DNA from: Polyangiaceae bacterium
GTDB lineage: Bacteria; Myxococcota_A; Polyangia; Polyangiales; Polyangiaceae
NCBI GenBank assembly: GCA_036488725.1
Contig: DASXHD010000111.1
Coordinates: 16,760 to 80,759, forward strand
Length of the DNA stretch: 64,000 nt
Direction of reading: 5' to 3'
This document shows positions 2,181 through 18,447 of the stretch, piece by piece (positions within the stretch are counted from its first letter, which is position 1; each line of letters starts with the position of its first letter). Position numbers and translations under genes: made by a program. The notes beneath the pieces were generated by a model. The model searched no databases. It saw nothing but the letters and a program-made list of their open reading frames with translations, and was not told the DNA's origin.

Positions 2181-5100
2181 TCAGGTCCCGAGCTGCGCGA
2201 GGAGCTCGCGGGCGTGCTCGAGCGTGCCGTCTTCGTCGACGGCGCGTTTGAGGAGCATCACGGCTTTTTTGTTGTCGCCTTGGTGCATCGCGATTTCTCC
2301 GAGGCGTTCGTAGGCGACGCCCTTCGAGATCGGCGCGGGCGTGCGGATCATCGTGATCGCGCGGAGCGCGCGCGTCGCGGCCTCGAGCTCGCCCTCGGCA
2401 AGGGCCACGTACGCGAGCTCGGACGCGACGACGCCGCTTTGACCGTCCATGTCGAGGCCGCTCGACAGCATTTGGAGCGCGGCCTTCGGGTTGCCGAGCG
2501 CGTTTTCGAGACGACCGAGTCGCAAGAAGATCGGCGCGAGATCGCGCGAGCGGCGACCCTTGTGCGCCGTAACGACGGCTTGGAGAATTTCGCGCGCTTC
2601 GTCGAAACGCTCCGAGCCGATGAGCGCGTCGGCGAGGAGGCCGGTGCACTCGGCGTCAGCGGGCTTGATCGCGCGCGCTTCTTCGAGCGCGGCGACGGCG
2701 GCCGTCGGATCGTGCTCGAGCAGCGCGGTTCCGGCGGCGACGAGCATGTCGAAGCGTCGCGCGGGATCGCTCGCGGCGCGCGCTTCGGCGAGACGAAGCT
2801 CGGCGAGCTCGCGGTTCGCGCCGATCGCCGCGTAGACCGCCGACAATTTTTCGAGCACGCGCTCGTCGCTCGGCGCAGCCGCGTGCGCCTTCTCGAGGCC
2901 CGCGCGCGCGAAGCCCGGGTTTTGCGCGTTCGTCGACGCGTCCGCGAGCCTGAGCGCCATCTCGACGAGGCGATCGCCTTCTTCGAGCTCGAGCAAGCGC
3001 GCGTACGTGTCGGCCGCGGTGTCGAAGCGGCCGGCGGTCTCTTCGAGTCCCGCCATCGCCGCGAGCGTGTCCTTGTCGGAGTCGTCGTGCGAGAGAAGAA
3101 TTTCGAGCTGCGCGTGCGCTTCATCGGCGCGACCGGCCGCCGAGTGGATCTCGGCGATGCGACGGCGAAGCGGTTTTTGTGCGGGTCGCTCCGCGGCGTC
3201 GGCCGCGCGAACGAGGACCTCGAGCAAGAGCGGCGCACCCGCGGCCGCGTCGGAGGAGGCGACGCGCTCCGCGTCGGCGATGGCCTCGTCGTGCCGGCCG
3301 AGCGCACCGTGCACGCGCGCGCGCGCCGCGAGGACGATCGGATCCGGCCGCGTCTCGAGGAGCGCGCCGAGCTCTTCGGCCGCGCCTTCGTCGCCGAGCT
3401 GCTCGAGCGCCGTCGCGAGCGACGCGAGGACGTCGTGATCGTTCGGAGCGACCGCGTGCGCCGCGCGCATCGCGCGGGCGACGGCCACGGTGTCGCCGAG
3501 CTCGCGGTGGAGCGCTGCCGCGCCGACGAGCTCCTTCTTCGCCGCTTCGCCGCCGAGCGCGCGCGCCGCCGTTTCTTTCAGCGCGGCGAGCTTGCGGCGG
3601 TCGCCGCGATCTTCGTAGAGCGCGACGAGCCTGCTGCGAATCGCGTCGCTCGACGGGCACGCGGCGAGGCCCGCTTCGAGCGCGCGCTCGACGCCCGCGT
3701 CGTCCCATTGCTCGGCGCGCAAGCCCGCGAGCTCGAGCGCGAGATCCGCCGCGGCGTCGCCGTGCTCGGTTTCGAGGAGACGCTCCATCACGTCGGCGCG
3801 ATCCGCGACGTCGCCGCCGGTCGCGGTGAGAAGCCGTTTCATCGCGAGGAGAAGCCCGCGGTTCTTCGCCTCCCAATCGAGGCCGGCGAGATAGAGCGTG
3901 CGCGCGCGCGCTGGGTCCTCCGCTTCGACGAGCGAGCCGAGACGCAGCGAGAGGACCGCGACGCCGGCTGCGTCCTCGCGATCTTTTGCGGCATCGATTT
4001 GGCGTTCGAGGAGCGACGAGAGCTCGCCGGTCTCGCCGCGCGATTCGAGGAGCTCGGCGAGGAGCGCGACGGCCTGCGCGTCGAACGGGTCCTCTTCGAG
4101 GAGCGTGCGGAGCTCGGCGAGGATCTCGTCGACACGCTCGGGCTCGGCCGCGAGGAGACGCGCACGTTCGAGACGAAGCGCTCGTCGCTCGGCTTCGGCC
4201 TCGACCGACGGCAACAGGAGCTCGACGATCTCGAGCAGCGCGGCGGCGTCGCCGGTCGTGCGGAGGAGCTCGAGCAGCGCGCCGCGTGCGGAGACGTCGC
4301 TCGGATTCGCGAGCGCGATCTCGCGACGCGCGCGGAGCTCGTGCGTCACGTCGCCGGCTTGACGCGCGCGCAGCGCGACGCCCTCGCGAATGCGGCGCGC
4401 TTCGTCGGCGCTCGAATGGGCGCCGGCGTCGAGCTCGAGTCCGAGCGCTTCACTCGCCTCGCCGCGCGCGGCGACGAGCGCCGAGAGCTCGAGGAGCGCG
4501 CGACCGAGGATCGCGCCGTTGCCTTCTGCGCGCGCGACCACGCGCCGCAAGAGTGACTCCGCTCGCGCGGCGTCGCCCGACTGAATCGCAGCGCTCGACG
4601 CTTCTCGCAGCACCTCGACGGTCGCGTCCTCGCGATCGGCTTGAAGCATGATCGCGCGCGCCGCGAGATCCGCGCGGCCCGTCGCGCGCGCCGCGCGAAC
4701 GAAGACGTCGAGCATCGCGGAGCTCGTGGCGCCGCGTGTGATGGCCGCGTCGGCGATCGTCGCGGCGCGCTCGGGATCTGCCGCGAAATCGAGCGCGGTC
4801 GCGAGCGCGCGCGCCGCATCGTCGGCCGACTCGGGCCGACGCGCGCGAAGCTCGGCGAGGCGATAGAGAACGTCGGCCGCGCCGCGCGGATCGCGCGACG
4901 TGCTCTCGACCTCGAGCGCGGAGAGCTCCGCGAGGACGGCTTCTTGTTTCGCGTCGTCGCCGAGGCCCGCGTATGCGCGGTCGAGCGCGCGCAGCACTTC
5001 GCCGCGTGCGGCGCCCGTCTCGTTGGCGCGCTCGAGGAGCGCCACCGCGCGAGACGCGCCGCCGTCGACGCGCGACAGCGCTTCGGCAGCGCGCAGCATG

Positions 5101-8100
5101 AGCGAGCAAGCGGCGCGCGCGTCCCCCGCGCCGGCTGCACGATCCGCGAGGCCCGCGATCGCGTCGATGTACGACTCCGGTTTGCCGGTCTTGGTCGCGA
5201 GGGCCATCGCCGCTTCGTGCGCGGGCGCCGAACCCGGCGTCTCGGCGATCGCCTCGAGCTGCGCGCGGAGAGCCGCCGCCATGTCGCCGAGCGCTTCGTG
5301 CGCGCGCGCGAGCTCGCCGAGCACCTCCGCGCGCGCGGTCGCATCCGACGCGCGCGCGAGACGCGCACCGAGCGAGCGCAAGAGGCCGGCGGTGTTTCCC
5401 CGCGTGCGGAGGGCTTTTTCGAGGCGACGCGCTTCGGCGTCGGACGTCGCAGCGGTTTCGAACGCCGACTCGAGGATCTCGCTCGCGCGCTCGCTTTCGC
5501 CGCGCCGCTCGGCCAGCGCGCTGAGCTCGACGAGCACCTCGCTGCGAAGCACCGGCGCGTCGTCGTCCGCGCGGCGAAGCACCGCGAGGAGCGCGCGATA
5601 CGAACGCTCGGCCTTGTCGAGCTGTCCGTCGTCGCGCGCGAGCTCGGCGACCATGCGCAAAATCTCGGGGTTCGCCGGGTCGATGCGCGTCGCGGCCTCG
5701 AGCTCGGCGAGCGCTTGCGCGCGCTCCCCGATGCGGAGGTGCAGCCGCGCGAGATGGAAGTGCACGGTCGCGCGCTCTTTCGGCCGCCGGCCGGCGAACG
5801 AGTCGATCATGTCGCGCAGGAGCGCGCGCGCGTCGTCGGGACGCTTGGCGTCCTGGAGCGCTTCGGCGAGCCGCAGCTTGAGCGGGCGATCGTCGGGCGC
5901 GAGCGCGCACGCTTGCTCGAGCAGCGGCACGGCTTGCTCGGCCTCGGCGCACTTCGTGAGAAAAATCTCCGCGGCCTCGACGAGCAGCGCGCGCCGCTCG
6001 TCGTTCGACTTGGCCTCGGCCGACTGGCGCGCGACGAGCTGAGCGAGCGGCGCCCACTTCTCCGTGCGCCGGTAAATCGCCGCGAGGCGCGAGGCGACCT
6101 CCGGCGGAGAGTCGGCGGCGCCGAGCGCGGCTTCGAGACGCTCCTGCGCGTCGGCGTCGCGCGCCGCGCTGACGTACGCATCGGCGAGACGCACGATGAC
6201 GCGCGCGCGCTGCTCGGGGAACTCGCGCACGAGCCGGTCGAGATGCGAAGCGGCGTCGACCCAATCTTTTTGTTGCTCGTGAATGCGCGCGATGGCGTCG
6301 AGCAGCGGCGCGCGAAGCTCGAGCGCGAGGCTTCGCTTGTAATGCGCGAGCGCCATCGCGAGGTGACCGAGCTTCTCTTCGGCGATGCTCGCGGCGCGCG
6401 CCCAGAGCTCGACGGCCGAGAGCGCGTCGCCTTCTTGCTCGGCGAGCGCGGCCTGCTCGGCGCAGAAACCGGCGAGCTCGTCCCAGCGGCCCGCGCCCTC
6501 GAGCGTCTCGGAGAGGACGAGCGTCGTTCGCGGATGGCGCGGCGCGTCCACCAAGTTCGCGCGCAAGAGCGTCGTCGCTTCGTCGACCCGTCCGAGCTCG
6601 CGTTCGAGGAGAGCGGCGTCGAGCCTGTGAGCGACGCGGTCGTCGGCGCGCTCGGCGACCTCTATCTGCTTGCGGCGAAGCGCGAGGAGATCCTCTTTTC
6701 GTCCGAGCGCCGCGTAGACCTCGCCGAGCCGGCGCGCGGCCTCGTCGTCGCGCGCGTCTTCTTCGAAAAGGCTCGCGTAGAGACGAAGCGCCGCCTGCAT
6801 GTCGCCGACGCGATCGAGCGCGGTTTTGCCCGCTTCGTGCAAGAGCTCGCGCGATCGCTGGCGCGAGAACGGCAAGCGCGCCGAGCTCTCGAGGAGCTCC
6901 ACGATGCGCTCGGCATCGCCTTCTTCGTTGTGGACGCGCAGCAGCTCGGCGAGCGACCACTCGACGTGCTCGCTCGGGTGAACCGACGAACCGACCGAAG
7001 GCGGCGCGTCGTCGAGCGCTTGTGTCGTGCTCGGCGGATGCTCGTCGCCCGCGTTCCATCGCTCGGCCGCGAGCTTCAAGAGACGATCGAGGATCGTCTT
7101 GGCGAGCCCGCGATCGACGACGACGCGCGCTGCGACCTCGGCGGCCTCGCGCAGCAAGTCGGGATCGCCGCCCGTCGCCTGCGACAAGCGCAGCAAGCTG
7201 TCGATGAGCGGACGCCCGCGATGCCGACGCTGGAGCTGCGCGAGCTGCGCGAGCAAACGCGTGTCGGTCGCGTCGTGCGCGAGCGCACGCCCGTACGCGG
7301 TCTCCGCCGCCTCGGCGTCTGCGCGCCTGTCGCGATGCCACGCGGCGAGACGCGCCTCGAGATCGCGCAGCGCCTCCTTGGCCAAGTCGGTGCGCTGACC
7401 GATCGCCGCTTCGAACGCCGCCGTCAGTGCGTCCCACCCTGCGTGCGCCGACGCGGCCTCCTCGAGCGCTTGCATCAAGCCGTCGTCATGACCGCCCGCG
7501 AGCGCCGCACGATCGAGCACGATCTTCGTCGCTGCATCCCAACGCCCGACGCGCGCTGCGACGCGAATCACGGCGAGCGCGGCGGCTTCGTTCGTCGGGT
7601 CGTCGTTCGCGACGCGTGTATGTTGCACGAGCGCGCCGCGCGGATCGTCGAGCCTCGTCTCGAGGAGCGAGCCGAGCGTCGTCCGCAAGCGAATCACGTC
7701 GGCGTCACCCGCGGGGCGAGAGCCTTCGAGCGCTTCGAGCACGACACGATGCGCATCGGCGAGCGCGCGATACGCGTCCGGCGCGCCGGACATCGCCGCG
7801 ACGCCCGCGCGACGCTCGGCGATCGCAGCGACCTCGGACGCTCCTTGCGCCGTCGTGAACGCTTCGCGCGTCGCATGGAACGCTGCCTCCGCGTCGCCCG
7901 CGCGATTTTCGAAGAGGTCGGCGGTCTCGAGCAGGCTCGCGACGCGCTCGGCGTCGTCCGTCGCGAGGCGGAGCCGCTGCGGCAAGAGCGCGACGGTCGC
8001 TGACCAAGAGTCAGTCGCCGCGTGGTCCGCCAAGAGGACGTCGAGCGCGCCGCGCGCCGCCGCCGTGACGTCGAGCAGCGCCGTCAGACCTTGGGCCGCG

Positions 8101-11100
8101 CGCGCATCGCCCGGTTTGGCCTCGAGGCTCTTCGCATAGCTCGCGATCGCCGCGTCGTGCGCGTGGAGCATCGCGCGTTGCACGTCGCCGAGTCGAACGA
8201 GCAAACCGGCCTTCGTCTCCGCGTCGTCGTGGCGCACGGCGGAGCGCTCGAGGAGCTCGGCGAGCTCGGTCCAACGCGCGCGCGCCTCGTAGAGCTCCGC
8301 GAGCGCCGTGTCGACGTCGTCGGCCTCGCCGCTCGCTTTGCGCACCGACTCCCAAACGTCGATCGCTTCGTCGGCCGCGTCGAGATCGCCCGACAAAATG
8401 CGAGCCGCGCGCACTCGGTCCTCACGGGCGGGCTCGGCCTCGCGCGCGCGCGCGCGAACGAGCAGAGACTCGACGAGCGGACGCAAGCGACCCGAAGACG
8501 CGAGCACGTCGACGAGACCGTCGAGCGCTTCGACGTCGGACTCGTCGTCACGGAGGCGCGCCTCCCAGGCGGCGACGCATCGATCCGCTTCACCGATCTC
8601 GCCCGCGAGTCGTGCGGCGGCGCCGAGCGCTTCGCGTCGCGCGGCGGGTTCGTCTTCGAGCGTCGCGAGGCGCTCGAGCACGGACAAACGATCCGCGCGC
8701 CGGTCGGTCTTCGCGAGGAGCCCGTCGAGCCTGCGCGCTGCGGCGAGCATCGACGCGGCCGGCACGTCGAGCGTGAGCACGCGCCCGAGCAAGTCGACCG
8801 CGCGCCCGACGTCGCCGAGCCGCTCGGCGTAGACCGTCGCGGCGCCTTCGAGCAGCGTCGCGCGGAGCTCTTCGCTCTCGCAATCGTCGGCGGCGGCCGC
8901 GAGCACTTCGCCGAGCCGATCGAATCGCCCGGTTTTGTCGGCGAGCCGCGCGAGGCGCTCGCGATGCACGTTCGCGTCGGGGTCGAGCATCACGAGCGAC
9001 ACGGCGTGCTCGAGCGCGGCCGCGTCGTTGCCGAGACGCTCGTGGAGCGCGGCGACCTCGCCGTGGCGGCGGATGCGATCCTTCGCGTTCTTGACCGCCT
9101 CGAGCTCGATCTCGAGCATGCGCGCGAGGTCGGCGTCGCGGTCCATCTCGGCGTAACGCTCGCGGAGGAGCGACGCCGCGCGCTGCCGAACGAGCACGCG
9201 CTTGCTGCGACCCTTGCCGCCCGGCGGCGGCACCGACGCGCGCGGCGGCACCGAGGCGCGCGGCGGCGGAACGCTCTCGTGCGCAGCCGCGACGTGCTCG
9301 CTCACCGGCGACGACGTCGGCGGGAGCGTCTTCTTCATCTCCTCGCCCGTGGGCGCGGCCGCGAGGACGCGCTCGAGCAGCGCGATCACCTCGTCGCCGG
9401 TCTCGCCCTCGTGCATCATCTCTTCGACGACGAGCAGCGCCGAGCCCGCGTCGCCGAGCTCGTCGAGCCAGAGGGTCGCCATGCGAACGCGCAGCGCGTG
9501 CGCCTCTTTCGGCTCTTTTCCGCCGATTTGCGCGCCAAGGAGGCCGATGAGCTCGCGATGTTTTCCGTAGCGCTCGTAGAGGCGCTCGAGCGAAGCGAGC
9601 AGTCGCTCGTTCTTTGGTTTGAACTGCAACAACTGCTCGAGATACGCGATCGCACGCCCGGAGTTCTTGGCGAAGTCTTTCGCGATCTGCGCGGCGTCTT
9701 CGAGGAGCTCGGTGCGACGCGACTCGTCGAGGTCGCCGCCGAGGAGCCGATCGTAGAGCGCGAAGAGATCGTCCCAGCGCTCTTGCGAGTCGTAGAGCAG
9801 CTTGAGCCGGTCGAACGCCCAGCCCGCCGGATCGAGATCCACCATCCGCTCGAGGATGCGAACGACGGCCGCCGCGTCGTCGAACCACTCCTCGTGAAAC
9901 GATACGGCGCGTTGACCGAGCTCGAGCGCGTCCTCGACCGCGATCGGCCGCGTGATGACGCCGTGGTACAAATCGGAGAGCTCTTGCGGTCGATCGAGCG
10001 CGCGCGCGAGCTGCTCGGCGCGATCCCACCAGACGAATTCGGTCGGAAGCTCGGCGAGCGCGCGAAGGAGCACGCCGTACGATTCGTCTTGCGACGACGC
10101 GGTCTCGAGGAGCTGCGCGTGCCACGCGCGACGTCGCTCGATCGGGGCGTCGGTCGCGCCGGAAACGAGCGCGGCGAGGACGCGTTTCTTGCCAGCCGCG
10201 TCGGTGCTCGCGAGCGACGACTCGAGGAGACGCGACGCATCCGCGCCGACCTCGGCGTGCGGCAAGAGCTTCACGAGCATGCGGAGCGCCGCTTCGTCGT
10301 CGGCGCGTCGTTCGAGCGCCGCACGCAGCTCCTTCATCGCCTCGGCCTCGCGCCCGGGGATCGACGAGAGGAGCGACGTGATCTCCGCGCGGAGCTTCGC
10401 CGCGCTCTCTTCGTTCGCAGCTTCCACGCGCGCGCGGAGCGTCGCCAGCGCGCCGTCGACGTCGCCGGCCGCGACCATCAAACGCGCGATTTCGACTGGC
10501 GGCGCGTCGTCGGACGGATCCGCCTCCGCCGCCTGCTTCCACAGGTCGATCGCGCGCGACGCGTCGCCGAGCTTTTCTTCTTCGACGCGCGCGAACCGCG
10601 AGAGCGCCGCCGCACGGCCCGCGCCAGTCTCGCGCGACGCGCGCCACGCGAGGAGCCACCGCCACGCCTCGGCTTCGCGCTCCGCGTCCGACTTCGCGAG
10701 CAGCGCCTCGAGCGCGTCGGCCACGCGAGTCTTGGTCGCGTCGTCGGCGAACGGATCTTCGAGCACCCCGCGGAACGTCTCGCGCGCCTCGCTCGGGTTC
10801 GCTCCGGTCGCCGCGAGCACCTCGGCCTTCGCCGCGACGAGCCGCGCGCGGAGCGTCGGGTCGCTGCCCGCGTCGCCGCCGAGCGCGTTGTCGACCGTGC
10901 GCGTGAAAGAGGGCACCGCGCCCGCCGCGATCGCGAGCTCTCCGAGCCGCGCGAGCGCGACCGCGTCCGACGGAAGCTCGAGGAACGCGCGCGCGACCGC
11001 GTCGAACGCGCCCGGCGCGTCCTCGAGCCGTTTTTCGAGCACGTCGGCGAGCTTGAGGAGCGCGTCCTTGCGCTCGCTCGGCGTCCCGGCCGACTCGACG

Positions 11101-14100
11101 AGCGCCGCATAGAGCTCCGGCAGCGCCGGCCAATCGCCCGCCGTCTCGACGAGCGCCGCGAGCCGCTCGGTCGCGATCCGATCGAACGGTGCCCCGCGAC
11201 GAATGCGCTCGTAGAGCTTTCGCGCGGTCTTCACGTCGCCCATCTCTTCGGCCGCGCGCGCGCCTTCGCGCCATGCATTCGCCGCGGCAGCCGCGTCGCC
11301 GCGCTCGGTGTGGAGCGTCCCGAGCCGCGTGTACCAGAAAACTTTGTCTTCGCCCGTCTCGGCCAAGTCGACACGCTTGCCGGCCGCAACGATCAAAAGC
11401 TCGCTCGCCTCCGCGCGCTCCGCGACCTGCTCGACGAGATCGAGATCGGCGTTGGTCGCGAACGCGTCCTCGGCGAGCGCGCGCGCGTGCACGACGGCGC
11501 GCTCGTGCAAATTGTGGTCGGACGCGACGCGCGCGAGCCGAAGGCGAAGCCCGCGCTCCTCGTCGCCCGGCGGCGTGCGCGGGAGCCGCTGCTCGAGGAG
11601 CGCGCACGCGTCGGCGAACGCGCCCGCGTCGCAGTGAATCTCGTAGAGCGCGTCTTCGGTCGCGTCATCCGGACCTTCGGCGAGGCTCGCGCGGAGCGTG
11701 TCGGCCGCGCCGCCCGCGTCGCCGAGCTCCTTGCGCTGCAAGCTCGCGATCGCGAGGTGCAGGCCCCGCCGCTTTTCGGGCGCGGCCTCGGTCGCGAGCG
11801 CCGCGCGATAGAGCTTCACGCGATCGTGCGGGGTGCCCTGCTCGCGCAAGAGCAAATCGACGCCCGCCATGAGCTCGGGTGACGACGGCGCGTAATCGAG
11901 CGCGCGCTTGTAGGCGTCGAGCGCGCGCGAACGATCGCCGGCGAGCATCGCCGCGTCGCCGAGCCGCTGCGCGATCAGCAAGAGCTCGTCGGTCGACACG
12001 GCGCGATCGCCGAGCGCGAGCGCGAGCACGTCGGCCCGCGCGCCCGCCCCACTTTCGCCGGGCGAGAGCCGGTCGAGCGCCGCGATCCACGCGGCGACCG
12101 GTCGCGCATCTTCGATGGCGTGCTCGAGCGCGGTGCGCACGAGCGAAAGCACGCGGCCGCGCTCGCTCGGCAAATGCTCGGCGAGCGACACCGCGTCCGA
12201 AAGCGCACGCCCGCGCTCGTCGGCGTCGGTCGCGCCTTGCACGCGTGCCAAGAGAACGCGCAACAGCCCCGAGCGCGAGCCTTCCGCGCGAACCATCGGC
12301 TCGAGCACCTCCGCCGCGGCGAGCGCGAGCGACGCGTCTTTCGAGTCGAGGAGCTGCTCGGTCGCCTCGCGCGCGATCGAATCGTGCGGATCGATCGCGA
12401 GCGCATCGCGAAACGCGTCGACTGCGCCGCGCCCATCGCCGAGCCACTGCATCCGCAAGAGCCCGAGCCGCCCGAGCGTCGCGACCTTCTCGCCGCCGTC
12501 CTCGATCTTCGCGAGCGATTCGTACGCAGTCGCCAGCGCCGCGAAATCTCGCTCGAGCTCGAGGAGCGGAACCCACCGCGCGAGCACGTCTTTCGTCGCC
12601 CCGAACTGCTCGACGATTTCGCGCCACGCGCTCGACGCGGCCGCTGCGTCGGTCGACGCCTCGGTGAGCTGCTCGGCCGCGCGCACCAAGAGCGCGCGCC
12701 GCTCTTCGGGCGACGTCGTGTCTTTGGCTTTCGCGTGGAGCACCTCGACGAGGCCGAGCGAATCTCCGAGCGACGAGAGCAGCGGCTCGAGCGCGTCGAG
12801 CGCACGCGCACGCGCCGGCGTGTCGAGGAGACCGCGATACGCCGCGACCGCGCGAGCCGGATCCGCGAGCGCACCCGACGCGAGCTCGGCGAGCTGCTCG
12901 GCCGCCTGCTGACGGCGAACGACGTCCGGCTCGGTCTTCACGATGCGCTCGAGCATCTCGGCGAGCGAGACATGATCTTCGTCCTCGCCATAGAGCCGCG
13001 CGAGCGCGTGCATCGCCGGCAGCACCGCCAAATCCGACGCGCCCGGGACGGTGAGCGCGCTCGAAAACGCCGCGCGCGCCCGCTTCACGTCGCCGGTCGC
13101 GAGGAGGAGCTCGCCCATTTCGGCCGCGAGCCGCGCACGCGACGAAGGATCTTTCGTCAGGCTCACGAGCCGCTGGAGCGTCTTCTGCGCGGCCTCGTGC
13201 TTGCCGAGGGTGCGCGTCAGCGCAACGAACCGATCCAACAAATCGCCGTCGCTCGGATCGATCTGAAGCGCCTGATCCGCCATGTCGTACGCGGCCGCAA
13301 AATCCTCTTCGCGATCGTGCTTGAGCGCGGCGAGCGCACGCAGCGGTCCAAAGCGACGCGCACCGCGCGCGTTCTCGAGCTCGATCGTGTAGTAGCGGCT
13401 CGCGTCCGCCCAGAGCTCCTGCTTCTCCGACGCCGCCGCGAGCGCCGCAGCAGCGCGCGGCGCAGCCGTCTTCACCTCGAGGAGCCGAATGCCGATGCTC
13501 TTGGCGCCCTCGTGCCCAGGCGCCCGCTCGAGCAACCACTCGACGTGCGGCAGCGCGCGCTCGATCTCGCTCGTCTCCTCATAGAGAGCCAGGAGCTTGG
13601 TCCGATGCGCGAAGGCGACGTCGTCCGGCGGCGGCGGATCGCCGGTGAGCGCCTGCTCCAACATTTTTGCCACGTCGCGCGGCCGGCCCGCACGAAGGAG
13701 CGCGTCCTCGAGCTTGGCTCGCGCGTCTTCGTCTTTCGGCTCGACGCGAACGAGCAGCGCGAGCGCGTCCGCGAGGCGCTCGCTCGCGCCCGCTTTCTCG
13801 AACGCCTCGGCAGCCTTTCGCAGCGGCCCGGCCTGCTCGGTGCGCGCGCGGTGCTGCGCGAGCTCGAAATAAAAATCCCCGAGCTTCGAGAATTCCCCGG
13901 ATTGCGTGAGCTTCTCCTCGAAGCGCGCGAGCGAGCTCGCGTGCGTCGGGAGCGCGGCCATCGCGCGGTCCAAGTAACTCTGCGCGCCGACGTCGTCCCC
14001 CATCACGTCGCCGAAAAAAACCGACGACTGGTACATGAACTCGGCGACGACGCCCGCTTGCAACGTGCGCAGCTTGCGATCGCTCGCGAGCCCCTCGAAG

Positions 14101-14300
14101 GCGAACGCGAGCTCGGTGATGCGATCGTCGCGCTTCGCGGCTTGATGCAATTTGTCCCAAGCTTCTTTCGGAAGCTGGTTACGAGCGAGCGCGAGGAGGA
14201 ACGCGCTCAGCACCTCGCCTTCGTTTTCGAGCCGCTCGTCGAGAGCGTCGATGACCGCCGAAACGCCGGCGGTCGGGCGATGTCGAGTCGAGTCGCTCAT
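2181..14300 (-). CDS. giant tetratricopeptide/Sel1-like repeat protein (4039 aa)
   Basis: Single uninterrupted 12,120-nt ORF. Ala/Leu/Glu/Arg-rich helical-repeat signatures (A..Y..L.....P.....A...LG) recur throughout. One Pro-rich low-complexity linker ([36 protein letters not shown]) near the middle. No signal peptide. The ORFs on the opposite strand or in other frames of this region are all R/A-rich junk. Confidence 0.8.
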
Positions 14301-14373
14301 CCCGGGACCCCCGAGGGTATCACCACGGGCGCGCGTGCGATCTGGTCTATCGTTCAGTAACGAAGCTCTTCCG

Positions 14374-15645
14374 TCAGGTCATGCTCGCGTCGGTCCGGTA
14401 CGGACCGGACGTCGGCGAGGCCGGATTGCCGACCGTGCCTGCGCCGCGCGTCGCCACGACCACGCCGATTCCGGTCAGGACGACCGCGAGCATGACGAGC
14501 CCGTTCACGATGGGAATGGCCCCGCTGACGAGAAAGAGGGCGCAGCCGACGAGCAAATGAAGGTGCGGATTGTCGGTCTTGTGCCCGACCAGCGCCTTGC
14601 CGACCGTCGCGAGCACCGCGCAGATCCCCGCGTAGGCGGCGAAGATTCCGCCGAGCAAGAGCACGATCGCGACCGGAATCCCGATGATCGTGATGGCGAT
14701 CACGGCGAGCGCGATGATGCCGACGATGAGCCCGACGAGACCGAGCGCGAACGAGCGCATCGGGCGCGAAGCAGCTTCGATGCGGAGCGCGTTCATCTTT
14801 TTGCCCGCGAGCGCGAACAGCACCGCGCCGAACACGAAGAGCATCGCGGCGCGCGTCGTCGCGTCGCTGACCTCGCGCAAGATGGACCGATGCGACCCCG
14901 AGCTGTCGGAGCCGATGTGAATGTCGTCGCTCTTGTGCGTGGCTCCGCCGATTCGCGAGCCTTTGTGACGATCGAGCGACCCGCCGACCACGCCGACGTC
15001 GCCGTCGACCTGTGCCCCGTCGGCGACGTCGATGGACCCGCCGACCGCGCTCGCGCTCCCGAAGACGTGCGCGCCTTTTTTTACCGCCGCGCTGCCGCCG
15101 AACACGGTGACGTTGCCGGTGACGGTTCCGTGAATCGTGACCGAGCCGCCGAAGACGGTGACGTCGTGCACGGTCTCGTCTGCGCCGACGACGAGATCGC
15201 CGCCGCGGACCAAACGATCTTCGCCGCGGACGCTCGGCGTGGACGCGACCATCGCCGGCGGTGGCGCGCTCGCGGGCGGAGGCGGCGGAGTGCTCGCGCT
15301 CGGAATCGCGGCGGGCTCTTCGGCCGCACGAATCGTGATGAGCGTGCCGTCGCGTTTGGCGACGAAGTCGCCCTCGGCGAGCACGACGTCGAGCACTTTG
15401 TCGGCCGGCTGATCGGTGACGTGCAAGTCGAACGGCTTCCCGTCGTCGACGCCGCGCAGGATGACGCTCCACCCCGCCTCTTTCGCGACGCGCGCGACGG
15501 CCTCCGTGCGCCCGATGTGCGTCGCGTCGAGCGAGATTCGTTTGTCGGCCGGCCAAGTGCCTTCGTGGCGGACCTCGGCGAAGGCAGCGCGCCCGACGAG
15601 CACGGCGAAGGCAAACGCGAACAAGGCGAATACGAAGCGTTTCAT
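14374..15645 (-). CDS. membrane protein with secreted N-terminal domain, bactofilin/DUF4097-like beta-helical Gly-Val repeat region and C-terminal multi-TM domain
   Basis: ATG at 15645 (MKRFVFALFAFAFAVLVGRAAFA signal). Repeats VTVFGGSVTIHGTVTGNVTVFGGSAAVKKGAHVFGSASAVGGSIDVADGAQVDGDVGVVGGS. Four or five hydrophobic helices at the C-terminus. The start ATG overlaps the anti-sigma stop (ATGA). Confidence 0.7.
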   Translation of the reverse strand: MKRFVFALFAFAFAVLVGRAAFAEVRHEGTWPADKRISLDATHIGRTEAVARVAKEAGWSVILRGVDDGKPFDLHVTDQPADKVLDVVLAEGDFVAKRDGTLITIRAAEEPAAIPSASTPPPPPASAPPPAMVASTPSVRGEDRLVRGGDLVVGADETVHDVTVFGGSVTIHGTVTGNVTVFGGSAAVKKGAHVFGSASAVGGSIDVADGAQVDGDVGVVGGSLDRHKGSRIGGATHKSDDIHIGSDSSGSHRSILREVSDATTRAAMLFVFGAVLFALAGKKMNALRIEAASRPMRSFALGLVGLIVGIIALAVIAITIIGIPVAIVLLLGGIFAAYAGICAVLATVGKALVGHKTDNPHLHLLVGCALFLVSGAIPIVNGLVMLAVVLTGIGVVVATRGAGTVGNPASPTSGPYRTDASMT

Positions 15646-16133
15646 GACATGACTCCTGGCGTACGGGACGTGCGCGCCACGGCGAAGCCGATCAGCGCGA
15701 GAGCGAAAGTGGCGACGAGCGAGACGGCGGCCCCGCCGTTGCCCGAGAGACTCTTCGAAGCCGCGACGAACGACATCGCGACGACCGGAAGCGCGTGCGG
15801 CGCGGCGAACGCCCAGGCGAGCGCGCGAGGCGCCGCATCGAGCAGCGCGGGCGCGCCGCAGACGGCTGCGACGACGACCGCCGCGGCGACCATCACCGTC
15901 GGAAACCGATGCGACGCTTTGGACTCGATCGACATCACCTTGGCGACTCTCAACGCGGCGCCGACCTCGTGCGACTCGAGCGCGAGCGCGCCGATTCGAA
16001 GCGTGCATTCTGCACATGATTCGGCGTGCACGCGGGCGACTGGGTCGACGACGTCCTGCGCGTCGGCGATGCACGAGAGCGCGACCTCGCTCAGGTGCTC
16101 GCCGTCCCAGGTCTCGGCTTCGGTCAGCTTCAC
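15642..16133 (-). CDS. zinc-binding (ZAS-type) anti-sigma factor, membrane-anchored
   Basis: HAESCAECTLR motif (HxxxCxxC) near the N-terminus, with a central TM segment. Start overlaps the ECF sigma stop (ATGA). Confidence 0.7.
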   Translation of the reverse strand: MKLTEAETWDGEHLSEVALSCIADAQDVVDPVARVHAESCAECTLRIGALALESHEVGAALRVAKVMSIESKASHRFPTVMVAAAVVVAAVCGAPALLDAAPRALAWAFAAPHALPVVAMSFVAASKSLSGNGGAAVSLVATFALALIGFAVARTSRTPGVMS

Positions 16134-16681
16134 TGTTCGTTCCTTTCAGAGAGCGTCGCGGCGAGCGCCTTCTTGCCGCGCAAAATCCAAGTGGCGACTG
16201 TGCCGACGGGCACGCCGAGCTTCTCGCCGATTTCGACGTACGAGAGCCCCTCGAGAAAAAAGAGCGTGACGGCCTCGCGCTGTTTTTCGGGGAGCGCCGC
16301 CATCGCGGCGTCGAGCTTCGCGAGCTCCTGCATGCGCGCGGTGCGGTCGAACGGCGACGGCTTCGAATCCGGAATCCGATCGGTGACGTCGCGGACCGAC
16401 TCGGCCGCCGGCTCGGGCGCTTGACGCTTGAGCGCGCGCGTTCGGCTGCGCGCCGCGTCGAGCGCCACGTGCTTGACGATGCCGACGATCCATCCGCGAA
16501 CCGGCTCGCCCGGCCGAAGCCGCGCGCGGCCTTCGAGCGCCCGGCGCATCGTCTCGCTGACCGCGTCGTCCACGTCGGGGTGTCCCGGCGCGACGTGCAG
16601 CACCGACGCGGCGACGGCCCGCAAGAGCGGCCGAAGCTCAGCCGCCTCCCGCGAAAATGCCTCCGCCGACACCGCCGTCAT
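16130..16681 (-). CDS. ECF (sigma-70 family, group IV) RNA polymerase sigma factor
   Basis: Region 2 (GWIVGIVKHVALDAARSR) and region 4 helix-turn-helix (EKQREAVTLFFLEGLSYVEIGEKLGVPVGTVATWILRGKKAL). Start placed at the internal ATG (MTAVSAE). Confidence 0.85.
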   Translation of the reverse strand: MTAVSAEAFSREAAELRPLLRAVAASVLHVAPGHPDVDDAVSETMRRALEGRARLRPGEPVRGWIVGIVKHVALDAARSRTRALKRQAPEPAAESVRDVTDRIPDSKPSPFDRTARMQELAKLDAAMAALPEKQREAVTLFFLEGLSYVEIGEKLGVPVGTVATWILRGKKALAATLSERNEQ

Positions 16682-16774
16682 CGACCCGATGTTGCCGCGA
16701 GGCCGCGGCGAAGCAAAGAAGACGGCGCCAAGCATGGGGTTCCCCAGCTCTTCGTCCGAGCCCCCTCTTTAATT

Positions 16775-18028
16775 TCAGGCTGATTTCGCGACCAGCGCTT
16801 CGAGGCGGTCGAGGGCCCGCTCGACGACGTCCATCGACGGGCCGAACGAAAAACGCACGTAATCGCGAAATCGCGACGCGCGCGCGCGGCGCTTGCCCGG
16901 GTTCACGTCGAAGAACTCGCCGGGCACGGTGATGACCTTCGCGTCGAGCGCGGCGCGGAAAAAGCTCGTCCCGTCGGCGAGGCTCGGCGGCAGCGCCGAG
17001 ACGTTGCCCCACACGTAAAACGTCCCGTCGGGCACGCGGTCGACGCGCACGCCGAGCCGTTCGAGCCGCGAGAGCATGCGGTCGCGCTTTTCGCGAAACG
17101 CGCCGTGGATCGCGAGCGTCTCTTTGGTGACGTGCTCCTCGCTCATGAGCGGAATCGCCGCGCGCTGGAGCGGCTTGCTGCCGCCGCCGTCGAGAAACGA
17201 GCCCGCGCTCGTGAGCGCTTCGACGACGCTCTTCGGTCCGAGCGCCCACGTCACGCGCCAGCCGGGGTATCGCCAATTCTTGGTGAGCCCGTCGAAGATG
17301 ACGACGGGATCGCGGTCGACGTCCTCGACATAACGCGCGGCGCTCTCGACCGGCAAAACGCCCGGCTTCGCGCGGTAGACGTAATGCGAATAAAACTCGT
17401 CGAACAAAAGCGAGCAGTCGAGCTCGCGCGCGACGCCGACCCACCGCTGGAGCTCGCCCTCGGCGACCGCTTTGCCCGTCGGGTTGCACGGGTTCGAGAG
17501 CAAAATCGCCGAGAGCCCGCGCCCCATGATTTCGCGGCGCAAATCTTCGTGCGAAAACGCGTAGCCGCGATCGCCGTCGAGCATGATCGGAATCGCGGTG
17601 AACGCGCGAAAGATATCGAGCAGCTCTTCGTACGCCGTGTAGTCGGGCAAAAAATGTCCGAGGTTGATCTGCGCGAGGCTCGCCGCCGCGCGCGTCAGCG
17701 CCATGCGCCCGCCGCCCGAGACGCACACGTTCTCGGCCGAGTACTGCGAGCGGTGCCCGCGCCGATAAAGTGTATTATACAAGTTTGCGATCGCCTCGCG
17801 CAGCTCGGGCAACCCGGCGACCGGCGCGTACTCTTGATCGTCGACTTCGATCGCGACGTGTTCGACGCGCGGCGGAGCTCCGGCGAGCGCGCCCGTCTCC
17901 GGCTGCCCTTGGCCGAGGTTGCACCAATCAGGATTGCTCGCCGAGAAGCCGAGCCGCGTCGCTTCGGTCGTGACGTAAATCACGCCGGTTCGCGGGACCG
18001 CGCGAAACGCCGCGAGGGTGTCGGACAT
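16775..18028 (-). CDS. PLP-dependent aminotransferase, class I/II
   Basis: LSNPCNPTGK motif and overall aminotransferase architecture. ATG at 18028 (MSDTLAAF); the R-rich upstream extension of the ORF is rejected. Confidence 0.8.
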   Translation of the reverse strand: MSDTLAAFRAVPRTGVIYVTTEATRLGFSASNPDWCNLGQGQPETGALAGAPPRVEHVAIEVDDQEYAPVAGLPELREAIANLYNTLYRRGHRSQYSAENVCVSGGGRMALTRAAASLAQINLGHFLPDYTAYEELLDIFRAFTAIPIMLDGDRGYAFSHEDLRREIMGRGLSAILLSNPCNPTGKAVAEGELQRWVGVARELDCSLLFDEFYSHYVYRAKPGVLPVESAARYVEDVDRDPVVIFDGLTKNWRYPGWRVTWALGPKSVVEALTSAGSFLDGGGSKPLQRAAIPLMSEEHVTKETLAIHGAFREKRDRMLSRLERLGVRVDRVPDGTFYVWGNVSALPPSLADGTSFFRAALDAKVITVPGEFFDVNPGKRRARASRFRDYVRFSFGPSMDVVERALDRLEALVAKSA

Positions 18029-18048
18029 GGCCCGCACCCATACCAAAT

Positions 18049-18447
18049 CTACAAGAAGCGCGCGCGAAGCTCGGGCGTCGGCACCATGCAGACCTCTTTT
18101 TTCCCGAACCAGCGGTACCGATTGCGCGCGACGATTCCGTAGACCCAGTCGCGCACGAAGCGCGGAACGATCCACGACGCAGCGAGCAAGCTCCATGGAA
18201 AACGAAGGCCGCGGGCGATGCGCACCGCGGCCGACGATTTTTGGAAAGCGCGCCCGTCTTCGACGAGCACGATGCTGGTCGGGTCACCGCTCGGAATCGC
18301 GATCCCATGCTCGCGCATGAGCTCTTTTCCCGAGTCGGACTGTATCGACGCGAACTTGAAACGCGCGCGCGGGTCCCGTTCGACGATGAACTGCACCGCT
18401 CCACTACAGAGGTTGCAGACACCGTCGAACAGGACGATCGCGCTCAC
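18049..18447 (-). CDS. DCC1-like thiol-disulfide oxidoreductase (DUF393 family)
   Basis: N-terminal MSAIVLFDGVCNLCSGAVQF CxxC motif and length (132 aa) characteristic of the DUF393/DCC family. Confidence 0.7.
   Translation of the reverse strand: MSAIVLFDGVCNLCSGAVQFIVERDPRARFKFASIQSDSGKELMREHGIAIPSGDPTSIVLVEDGRAFQKSSAAVRIARGLRFPWSLLAASWIVPRFVRDWVYGIVARNRYRWFGKKEVCMVPTPELRARFL

Follow-up and report, generated by a model that had tools for sequence, protein, structure and literature searches.

Several described systems resemble parts of the signalling locus reported here. In Bacillus subtilis, the SigM-YhdL-YhdK operon carries the genes for a sigma factor, an anti-sigma factor and an accessory membrane protein. 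In FecR and PupR, the periplasmic part of the anti-sigma factor has two subdomains, one all-beta and solenoid-like, the other of STN fold and serving protein-protein signalling. B. subtilis SigW is paired with RsiW, which binds zinc through C3/H30/C34/C37 and is degraded first by PrsW, at Ala168-Ser169, and then by RasP (PMC5358783, PMC8767453). We analysed a 64,000-nucleotide stretch of DNA (hereafter the window) from a soil myxobacterium, Polyangiaceae bacterium (assembly GCA_036488725.1, contig DASXHD010000111.1, positions 16,760 to 80,759), in which a region of about 68% G+C holds the gene for a sigma factor of the extracytoplasmic function (ECF) type followed by two genes, gene 2 and gene 3, whose products probably form a single anti-sigma factor split into two pieces. 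The three genes are as follows (aa, amino acids; TM, transmembrane).

16130 to 16735, minus strand: ECF (group IV) sigma factor, 201 aa, identified by Pfam and NCBIfam TIGR02937, with its start fixed by a conserved N-terminus
15642 to 16133, minus strand: gene 2, probable anti-sigma piece 1, 163 aa, with an HHCC motif and two TM segments; its family profile matches the N-termini of fused homologues
about 16005 to 16097, minus strand: HHCC motif H13...H36-x3-C40-x2-C43 of piece 1
14374 to 15645, minus strand: gene 3, probable anti-sigma piece 2, 423 aa, identical to HEY1959488.1

The open reading frames (ORFs) lie head-to-tail. A preliminary description of this DNA had reported three genes coupled through ATGA overlaps; the overlaps are real, but only that between the TGA stop of gene 2 and the ATG of gene 3 is ATGA, whereas the sigma stop and the gene 2 start share GTGA, gene 2 beginning with GTG. 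On the evidence of these overlapping codons, the trio is translationally coupled, and neither intrinsic terminators nor sigma-70 promoters were predicted within the operon on the minus strand. The gene 2 product is 100% identical to VGH28_27950, a protein of a Polyangiaceae metagenome-assembled genome (MAG), while the entry identical to the gene 3 product bears the database name 'polymer-forming cytoskeletal protein [Polyangiaceae bacterium]'.

The case for one working unit comes from gene co-occurrence and from gene fusion. We examined 68 loci from genomes and metagenomes, gathered by contig look-ups and a metagenome scan, and every locus with a full-length gene 3 relative and enough upstream DNA had an ORF matching the gene 2 hidden Markov model (HMM) directly upstream, with an ECF sigma gene before it. 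Within the Polyangiaceae and Myxococcota, the trio is retained at gene 3 identities down to 37-45% and in unrelated flanking contexts. An exhaustive profile search with the gene 3 family returned 433 cluster representatives at E<=1e-30; among the best 150 of these, 28 are 540-690 aa long and contain the whole gene 3 architecture beginning near residue 175, and 20 of the 28 carry HxxxCxxC inside their first 120 aa. The piece-1 HMM matches these fused N-termini colinearly, most clearly in P0191 (1.7e-12 over model positions 15-161), with further matches in P0280 (9e-8), P0303 (5e-5) and P0279 (1e-4). In loci L010, L011 and L012, the fused gene comes immediately after an ECF sigma gene, again with overlapping codons. 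These proteins of about 600 aa make up a sister clade in which the chain runs from an anti-sigma domain (ASD) through three TM segments, the last of them signal-peptide-like, to an STN domain, a beta-helix and a DUF8173 region; where their source is named, they are called 'polymer-forming cytoskeletal protein' and come from Myxococcales or Sandaracinaceae. Because genes 2 and 3 are fused in this clade, we consider it probable that they encode the two pieces of a split anti-sigma factor. Gene 3 had earlier been proposed as a functional partner of the HxxxCxxC protein, and that proposal is borne out by the fusions and by the presence of the trio in all informative loci.

Comparison of the split and fused forms revealed further features of the boundary between the two pieces. 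The third hydrophobic segment of the fused proteins has a positively charged n-region, an h-region and, in nearly all representatives, an AxA 3-4 residues before a conserved EGEWP, a signal-peptide-like layout that suggests processing by signal peptidase. A split locus (L005) and a fused one (L011) share one assembly accession, so both forms can coexist in one genome if that is what the assembly represents. Seven long relatives (P0283, P0287, P0298, P0299, P0302, P0311 and P0320) have no HxxxCxxC in their first 120 residues; P0283, which has a normal Met start, retains the N-terminal extension without the motif, and P0302 may have been given a wrong start. Zinc binding may thus be dispensable in part of the family. 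P0322 (669 aa) has three tandem STN-like repeats before its beta-helix-DUF8173 part and no anti-sigma domain. In L011, a standalone paralogue of 319 aa (6317-7276, plus strand) with a signal peptide, beta-helix and DUF8173, but neither STN domain nor ASD, lies just upstream of the sigma/fused-anti-sigma pair behind its own copy of TGAAAT-N17-CGTA; its role may be that of a regulon member, or of a decoy or feedback partner.

Turning to the individual genes, the sigma product matched Sigma70_r2 (PF04542, 5.9e-10) and Sigma70_r4_2 (PF08281, 1.6e-18) in Pfam, and scored 77.7 bits against NCBIfam TIGR02937, for which the cut-off is 42.9 bits. By its domain content, it is an ECF (group IV) sigma factor with sigma-2 and sigma-4 domains only, as had been supposed from the sequence; it reaches no equivalog-level NCBIfam model, and we assign it to no named subgroup. 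Its start had been placed at 16681, which is too short. The ATG at 16735 yields an N-terminus, MLGAVFFASPRPRGNI (MLxAxFFA), that is conserved between loci with synonymous third-position changes; gene callers in other loci also chose the equivalent start, and the promoter described next lies directly upstream of it.

16751 to 16777, minus strand: ECF-type promoter, identified as a conserved motif, with -35 element TGAAAT (16777-16772), 17-nt spacer and -10 element CGAA (16754-16751)

This TGAAAT-N17-CGAA element stops 15 nt short of the sigma ATG, and nothing else in the window matches it exactly. Six related loci (L001-L003 and L005-L007) each have it a single time, immediately before the sigma gene. 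Of the 29 loci with enough upstream DNA, 26 have the shorter form GAAA-N18-CG[AT] at a distance of 15-45 nt upstream of the sigma start, and the motif is likewise recorded as GAAAT-N17-CGA[AC] in 26 of 29; in two of the three others, the upstream DNA was cut off by the extraction window. The fused clade has TGAAAT-N17-CGTA in its place. A relaxed version of the motif gave only chance-level matches in the window, inside the coding sequence of the tetratricopeptide repeat (TPR) gene discussed below (3 found, 2.0 expected). The B. subtilis sigma-W promoter, with CGTA as its -10 element, is close to both the split and the fused versions. Its -35 element is TGAAAC (PMC6713349). GAAAT-N17-CGAA thus looks like a typical autoregulated ECF promoter; its conservation is observed directly, and it would presumably be used by this sigma factor. 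The preliminary description had expected a GGAAC-N16-CGTC promoter, and this is not what is conserved. A GGAAC...CGTC pair is present at a spacing of N14, but it overlaps the real sigma ATG and differs from the conserved motif. An aminotransferase gene (16775-18196, minus strand) lies upstream of the sigma gene, and its TGA stop (16775-16777) doubles as the opening TGA of the -35 element TGAAAT, so that hardly any untranscribed DNA separates the two genes.

Piece 1 carries HAESCAEC, and its motif as a whole is H-x22-H-x3-C-x2-C (HHCC), a pattern like that of ChrR (PMC5358783). In an alignment of 15 sequences with identities down to 30%, W9, H13, H36, C40 and C43 were invariant; in a wider alignment of 52 sequences, H36, C40 and C43 remained so, and H13 was conserved in at least 90%. 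The motif of zinc-binding class I anti-sigma (ZAS) factors, H-x3-C-x2-C with a fourth His or Cys ligand some 23-26 residues upstream, is thus present. Hydropathy indicates two TM segments, TM1 (aa 74-102) and TM2 (aa 132-156), with a loop of 29 aa between them and no periplasmic domain; this places the predicted C-terminus in the cytoplasm. We call piece 1 ZAS-like by its motif, position and context, and not by profile. The earlier label of ZAS anti-sigma factor stands as regards the invariant HHCC motif and the two TM stretches, seen in alignment and hydropathy; it fails as regards the zf-HC2 profile, which piece 1 does not match. Homology of piece 1 to zf-HC2 or to a solved ASD was unsupported by Pfam, PDB profile search, hhalign and Foldseek alike.

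The layout of gene 3 was derived from an AlphaFold2 (AF2) model with a mean predicted local distance difference test (pLDDT) score of 82 and from an alignment of 55 sequences. Its parts are listed below.

15577 to 15645, minus strand: signal peptide, aa 1-23, AFA|EV, corresponding to TM3 in the fused homologues
15325 to 15573, minus strand: STN/secretin-N0-like domain, predicted periplasmic, aa 25-107, identified by PilQ N0 profile and fold matches
14932 to 15222, minus strand: bactofilin-fold right-handed beta-helix, aa 142-238, five 19-residue turns, predicted periplasmic
14431 to 14892, minus strand: C-terminal membrane module, aa 252-405, five TM segments, probably the DUF8173 core

The signal peptide has a nearly invariant AxA site (A21, A23) and is followed by a beta-alpha-beta N-domain and then a disordered Pro-rich linker. 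The family profile of the N-domain matched PilQ N0 (4ar0) at E 8e-7, and the same structure was the top Foldseek match, followed by the signalling domains of the TonB transducers FoxA, FpvA, PupA and FecA; the PupR complex was also among the matches. Pfam STN (PF07660) matches 12 of the 55 gene 3 relatives, with a best E-value of 1.8e-6. P0317 scored 41.7 bits against a cut-off of 28.4, and the window protein alone reached only E 0.12. By profile and predicted fold, the N-domain is a secretin-N0/STN signalling-type domain, a point that the preliminary description overlooked. The beta-helix, modelled at a pLDDT of about 96, consists of five turns with a 19-residue period (V-F/V-G-G-S) and has the triangular right-handed fold found in bactofilins. 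Pfam Bactofilin (PF04519) gave the window protein 16.5 bits, below the gathering score of 27.9, and matched 12 of the 55 relatives at a lax E<=0.01 (best 1.1e-5).

The membrane module comprises TM1, a positively charged, amphipathic cytoplasmic helix with RPMRSF, and two helical hairpins, giving five TM segments in all. The charge distribution predicts that the loops at 285-294 and 355-360 and the C-terminus are cytoplasmic, which places the STN domain and the beta-helix in the periplasm. Bactofilins are cytoplasmic and polymer-forming; here the domain stands between a cleavable signal peptide and TM1 and is predicted to be extracytoplasmic. PF26514 (DUF8173) is precomputed on all 120 listed homologues, which are up to 83% identical, and on the fused clade. 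A Pfam scan gave no PF26514 match for the window protein, nor for relatives on which the match is precomputed. Since the model was apparently missing from the Pfam copy used, the label for gene 3 rests on these precomputed matches, and the membrane module is probably the DUF8173 core. The earlier outline of gene 3 as a secreted N-terminal domain, a bactofilin-like beta-helix and four to five TM segments was therefore accurate, with five TM segments by AF2 and hydropathy. It had also named the beta-helix DUF4097/bactofilin-like: the bactofilin fold is confirmed, although its Pfam score is sub-threshold as given above, and DUF4097 (PF13349, LiaG/YvlB-type) had no Pfam match and is dropped. In the split clade, the cytoplasmic loop at aa 355-368, GHKTDNPxxHLxxGC (about 14542-14583), has invariant or nearly invariant H355, H363 and C368; it is not conserved in the fused clade and may be a clade-specific, membrane-adjacent metal or redox site.

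Among described systems, SigW-RsiW shares an autoregulated ECF sigma gene co-transcribed with a following anti-sigma gene, an N-terminal x-H-x3-C-x2-C motif, and a short extracytoplasmic beta-helix, whose repeat in RsiW is of the V-x-G-D-V-T-V type. The B. subtilis RsiW sequence used here was checked only against Pfam and against the published residue numbers C3/H30/C34/C37 and A168/S169, with which it agrees. On this sequence, Pfam found zf-HC2 above its cut-off and a Bactofilin-like stretch in the ectodomain (E 1.6e-4), and hhalign aligned gene 3 aa 142-196 with RsiW 120-175 at E 1.9e-6 and 35% identity, the RsiW stretch including the PrsW cleavage site. Since the RsiW ectodomain aligns to the gene 3 beta-helix, a ZAS anti-sigma factor with a short extracytoplasmic beta-helix is a known design, and the pairing, which had been called unusual, is less so than supposed. 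RsiW is one chain with a single TM segment and a free C-terminal ectodomain, whereas here the ASD piece has two TM segments and no ectodomain, its ASD escapes zf-HC2, the beta-helix stands on a second protein together with an STN domain and a five-TM DUF8173 module, and the host is diderm. The novelty relative to the RsiW design lies in dividing the anti-sigma factor between two proteins and in adding an STN domain and, at the C-terminus, a five-TM DUF8173 anchor.

The other systems share less. FecI-FecR-FecA and PupI-PupR-PupB likewise have a membrane anti-sigma factor with periplasmic all-beta solenoid-like and STN-fold subdomains; by comparison, the present module uses two genes, has its STN domain distal on a tether, ends in a polytopic anchor, and lacks both a linked TonB-dependent transducer and a FecR match. 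Bactofilins (BacA, TtBac, CcmA; PF04519) share the fold and the repeat length, with 27% identity to TtBac and BacA, but the domain described here is predicted to be periplasmic, has only about five turns, is placed between a linker and TM helices, and scores below the Pfam gathering score. SigM-YhdL-YhdK has the same type of gene order, although its proteins are unrelated to the module and YhdK is small and without periplasmic domains; we know of no fusion evidence for that system. A literature search gave no match for DUF8173, for bactofilin together with RsiW, or for Toastrack together with anti-sigma factors; the three papers in which ECF, anti-sigma and bactofilin all occur are, judging by their titles, unrelated. 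Bactofilin is likewise absent from the main text of the paper that re-classified ECF sigma factors.

If genes 2 and 3 do encode a split anti-sigma factor, the module would be a self-contained ECF signalling unit of Polyangia-type myxobacteria, with its anti-sigma factor divided between two co-translated proteins. Piece 1 would hold the sigma factor at the inner membrane through a cytoplasmic HHCC domain on two TM helices. Piece 2 would be exported, lose its signal peptide and be anchored in the same membrane by its five-TM DUF8173 bundle, so that a membrane-proximal beta-helix faces the periplasm and the STN/N0 domain extends there on a flexible, Pro-rich linker; the segment after TM2 of piece 1, a signal peptide in the split form and TM3 in the fusions, would serve to export the STN domain, and contacts between TM segments would hold the two pieces together. 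A cue from the periplasm or envelope may then act on piece 2, either by protein contact with the STN domain or, by analogy with the action of PrsW on RsiW, by cleavage or unfolding of the beta-helix. Piece 1 might, by the same analogy, become exposed to intramembrane proteolysis, and the freed sigma factor would transcribe its own operon from GAAAT-N17-CGAA. Any one particular trigger is tentative, with somewhat less than an even chance of being the right one.

Several results weigh against a split anti-sigma factor, most of them concerning piece 1. The zf-HC2 family (PF13490) had no match at E<=1 in piece 1 of the window or in 52 members of its family, and none at E<=0.1 in 10 fused proteins. 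A profile search found no PDB sequence match for piece 1, and hhalign of piece 1 against the RsiW ASD was insignificant (E 0.05, probability 1%), though the motif columns align. In the AF2 model of piece 1 (pLDDT 74), helices at 14-23 and 31-71 form one long helix with no clear ASD bundle, and this model had no Foldseek match. That the two pieces bind each other where they are encoded separately is inferred only from the fusions. No protease or STN partner gene is conserved near the module, all source organisms are uncultured MAGs, and the L011 paralogue with its own sigma-type promoter indicates that DUF8173 proteins can also be regulon outputs.

This last point leads to a different account, in which gene 3 is a mere output of the regulon, a structural or protective protein of the periplasm or membrane, and piece 1 alone senses the cytoplasmic thiol or redox state through its HHCC motif, like RsrA and ChrR. 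The motif is indeed invariant, ChrR-type HHCC proteins respond to oxidants (PMC5358783), gene 3, being co-transcribed, is sigma-dependent by definition, and the L011 paralogue has a TGAAAT-N17-CGTA of its own. However, if gene 3 were only an output, it would be difficult to account for repeated, divergent fusions that keep the domains in exact order. Strict co-occurrence with overlapping codons also counts against this account; a purely cytoplasmic redox sensor needs no membrane anchor on piece 1, and the CHCC site of RsiW is no redox sensor (PMC5358783). We regard this account as quite improbable. Slightly less so, though still unlikely, is a disguised form of FecR-like cell-surface signalling, with the STN domain docking on a TonB-dependent transducer or secretin of the outer membrane and ligand transport triggering sigma release. 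The homology to PilQ N0 and the structural likeness to the signalling domains of FoxA, FpvA, PupA and FecA and to the PupR complex fit such docking, and one report describes contact between transducer and anti-sigma factor as guarding the latter from proteolysis (PMC11637429). Yet FecR (PF04773) had no match in the window protein, its 55 relatives or the fused proteins, no gene for a TonB-dependent receptor or secretin is conserved beside the module in any neighbourhood examined, and the domain order is the reverse of that of FecR, with an extra five-TM anchor.

In a third account, the beta-helix polymerises as a cytoskeletal bactofilin into a periplasmic or membrane filament whose mechanical deformation gates the anti-sigma factor. 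Bactofilins polymerise by end-to-end stacking, and here the domain is predicted to be periplasmic and tethered at both ends, by the Pro-rich linker and TM1, which would hinder such stacking. The Pfam Bactofilin match is below the cut-off in the window protein and reaches the lax threshold in only the 12 of 55 members noted above, and the related RsiW ectodomain is a protease substrate and no filament (PMC5358783, PMC8767453). We consider this the least probable of these accounts, and mechanical sensing, also raised in the preliminary description, is pure speculation. A variant of the split anti-sigma reading, doubtful but a little more credible than FecR-like docking, holds that the same mature machine is reached by two routes, from two genes or from one. 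Signal peptidase I would cut the fused precursor, either in constitutive maturation or as a regulated site-1 step. RsiV is cut by signal peptidase I at site 1. The same has been reported for RsiP (PMC8844934). The operon in the window would then be a genetically hard-wired post-cleavage state, with the anti-sigma factor as a non-covalent complex; if the DUF8173 partner were lost or rearranged, the ectodomain-less piece 1 would be exposed to a site-2 protease.

Downstream of the trio lies one further gene, which had been suggested as a possible target of the sigma factor.

2181 to 14300, minus strand: giant TPR gene, 4039 aa, beginning 73 nt downstream of gene 3

Only in relatives whose identity is about 52% or higher does this gene adjoin the trio, and the aminotransferase gene upstream is common to those relatives as well, a pattern of general synteny. 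It is absent beside the trio in L006-L008, where a different downstream gene is found. We found no ECF motif upstream of it. There is instead a conserved TGATACCCTCG element (14312-14322, minus strand), extended -10-like (TGnTAcccT), which is 11 nt away from the ATG in the window; another 35 nt or so upstream of it stands a CTGAACG box (about 14351-14357, minus strand). L001-L005 retain this pair of elements ahead of the TPR gene, where the proteins are only 58-75% identical, and the pair may be the gene's own promoter or a leader element. No terminator was predicted between gene 3 and the TPR gene, and read-through is therefore possible. The missing motif, the different conserved element and the loss of the gene in distant relatives speak against it as a sigma target, and it is a lineage-specific neighbour outside the conserved module. 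The TPR-like protein is all-helical, with relatives 60-87% identical over the first 600 aa; in the 4049-aa relative in L005, only faint Pfam TPR matches were recorded.

ECF sigma/anti-sigma pairs are among the most abundant signalling devices of bacteria, and the sensing part is known for only a minority of groups. The module described here joins three parts known separately, a ZAS motif, a beta-helix like that of RsiW and an STN domain of the FecR/TonB type, and its split and fused forms offer a natural experiment on how a membrane anti-sigma factor can be divided into sigma-binding and sensing pieces. If the two forms do prove to be routes to one mature machine, they would constitute an undescribed class of ECF anti-sigma factor that combines a ZAS-like ASD, an STN domain, a bactofilin-fold helix and DUF8173. 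Practical impact will be modest until the signal and a cultured host are found, and meanwhile the conserved promoter provides a handle for defining the regulon and building reporters. For the DUF8173 family, which numbers at least several hundred clusters at 50% identity and is misnamed 'polymer-forming cytoskeletal protein', an assignment to anti-sigma signalling can now be made.

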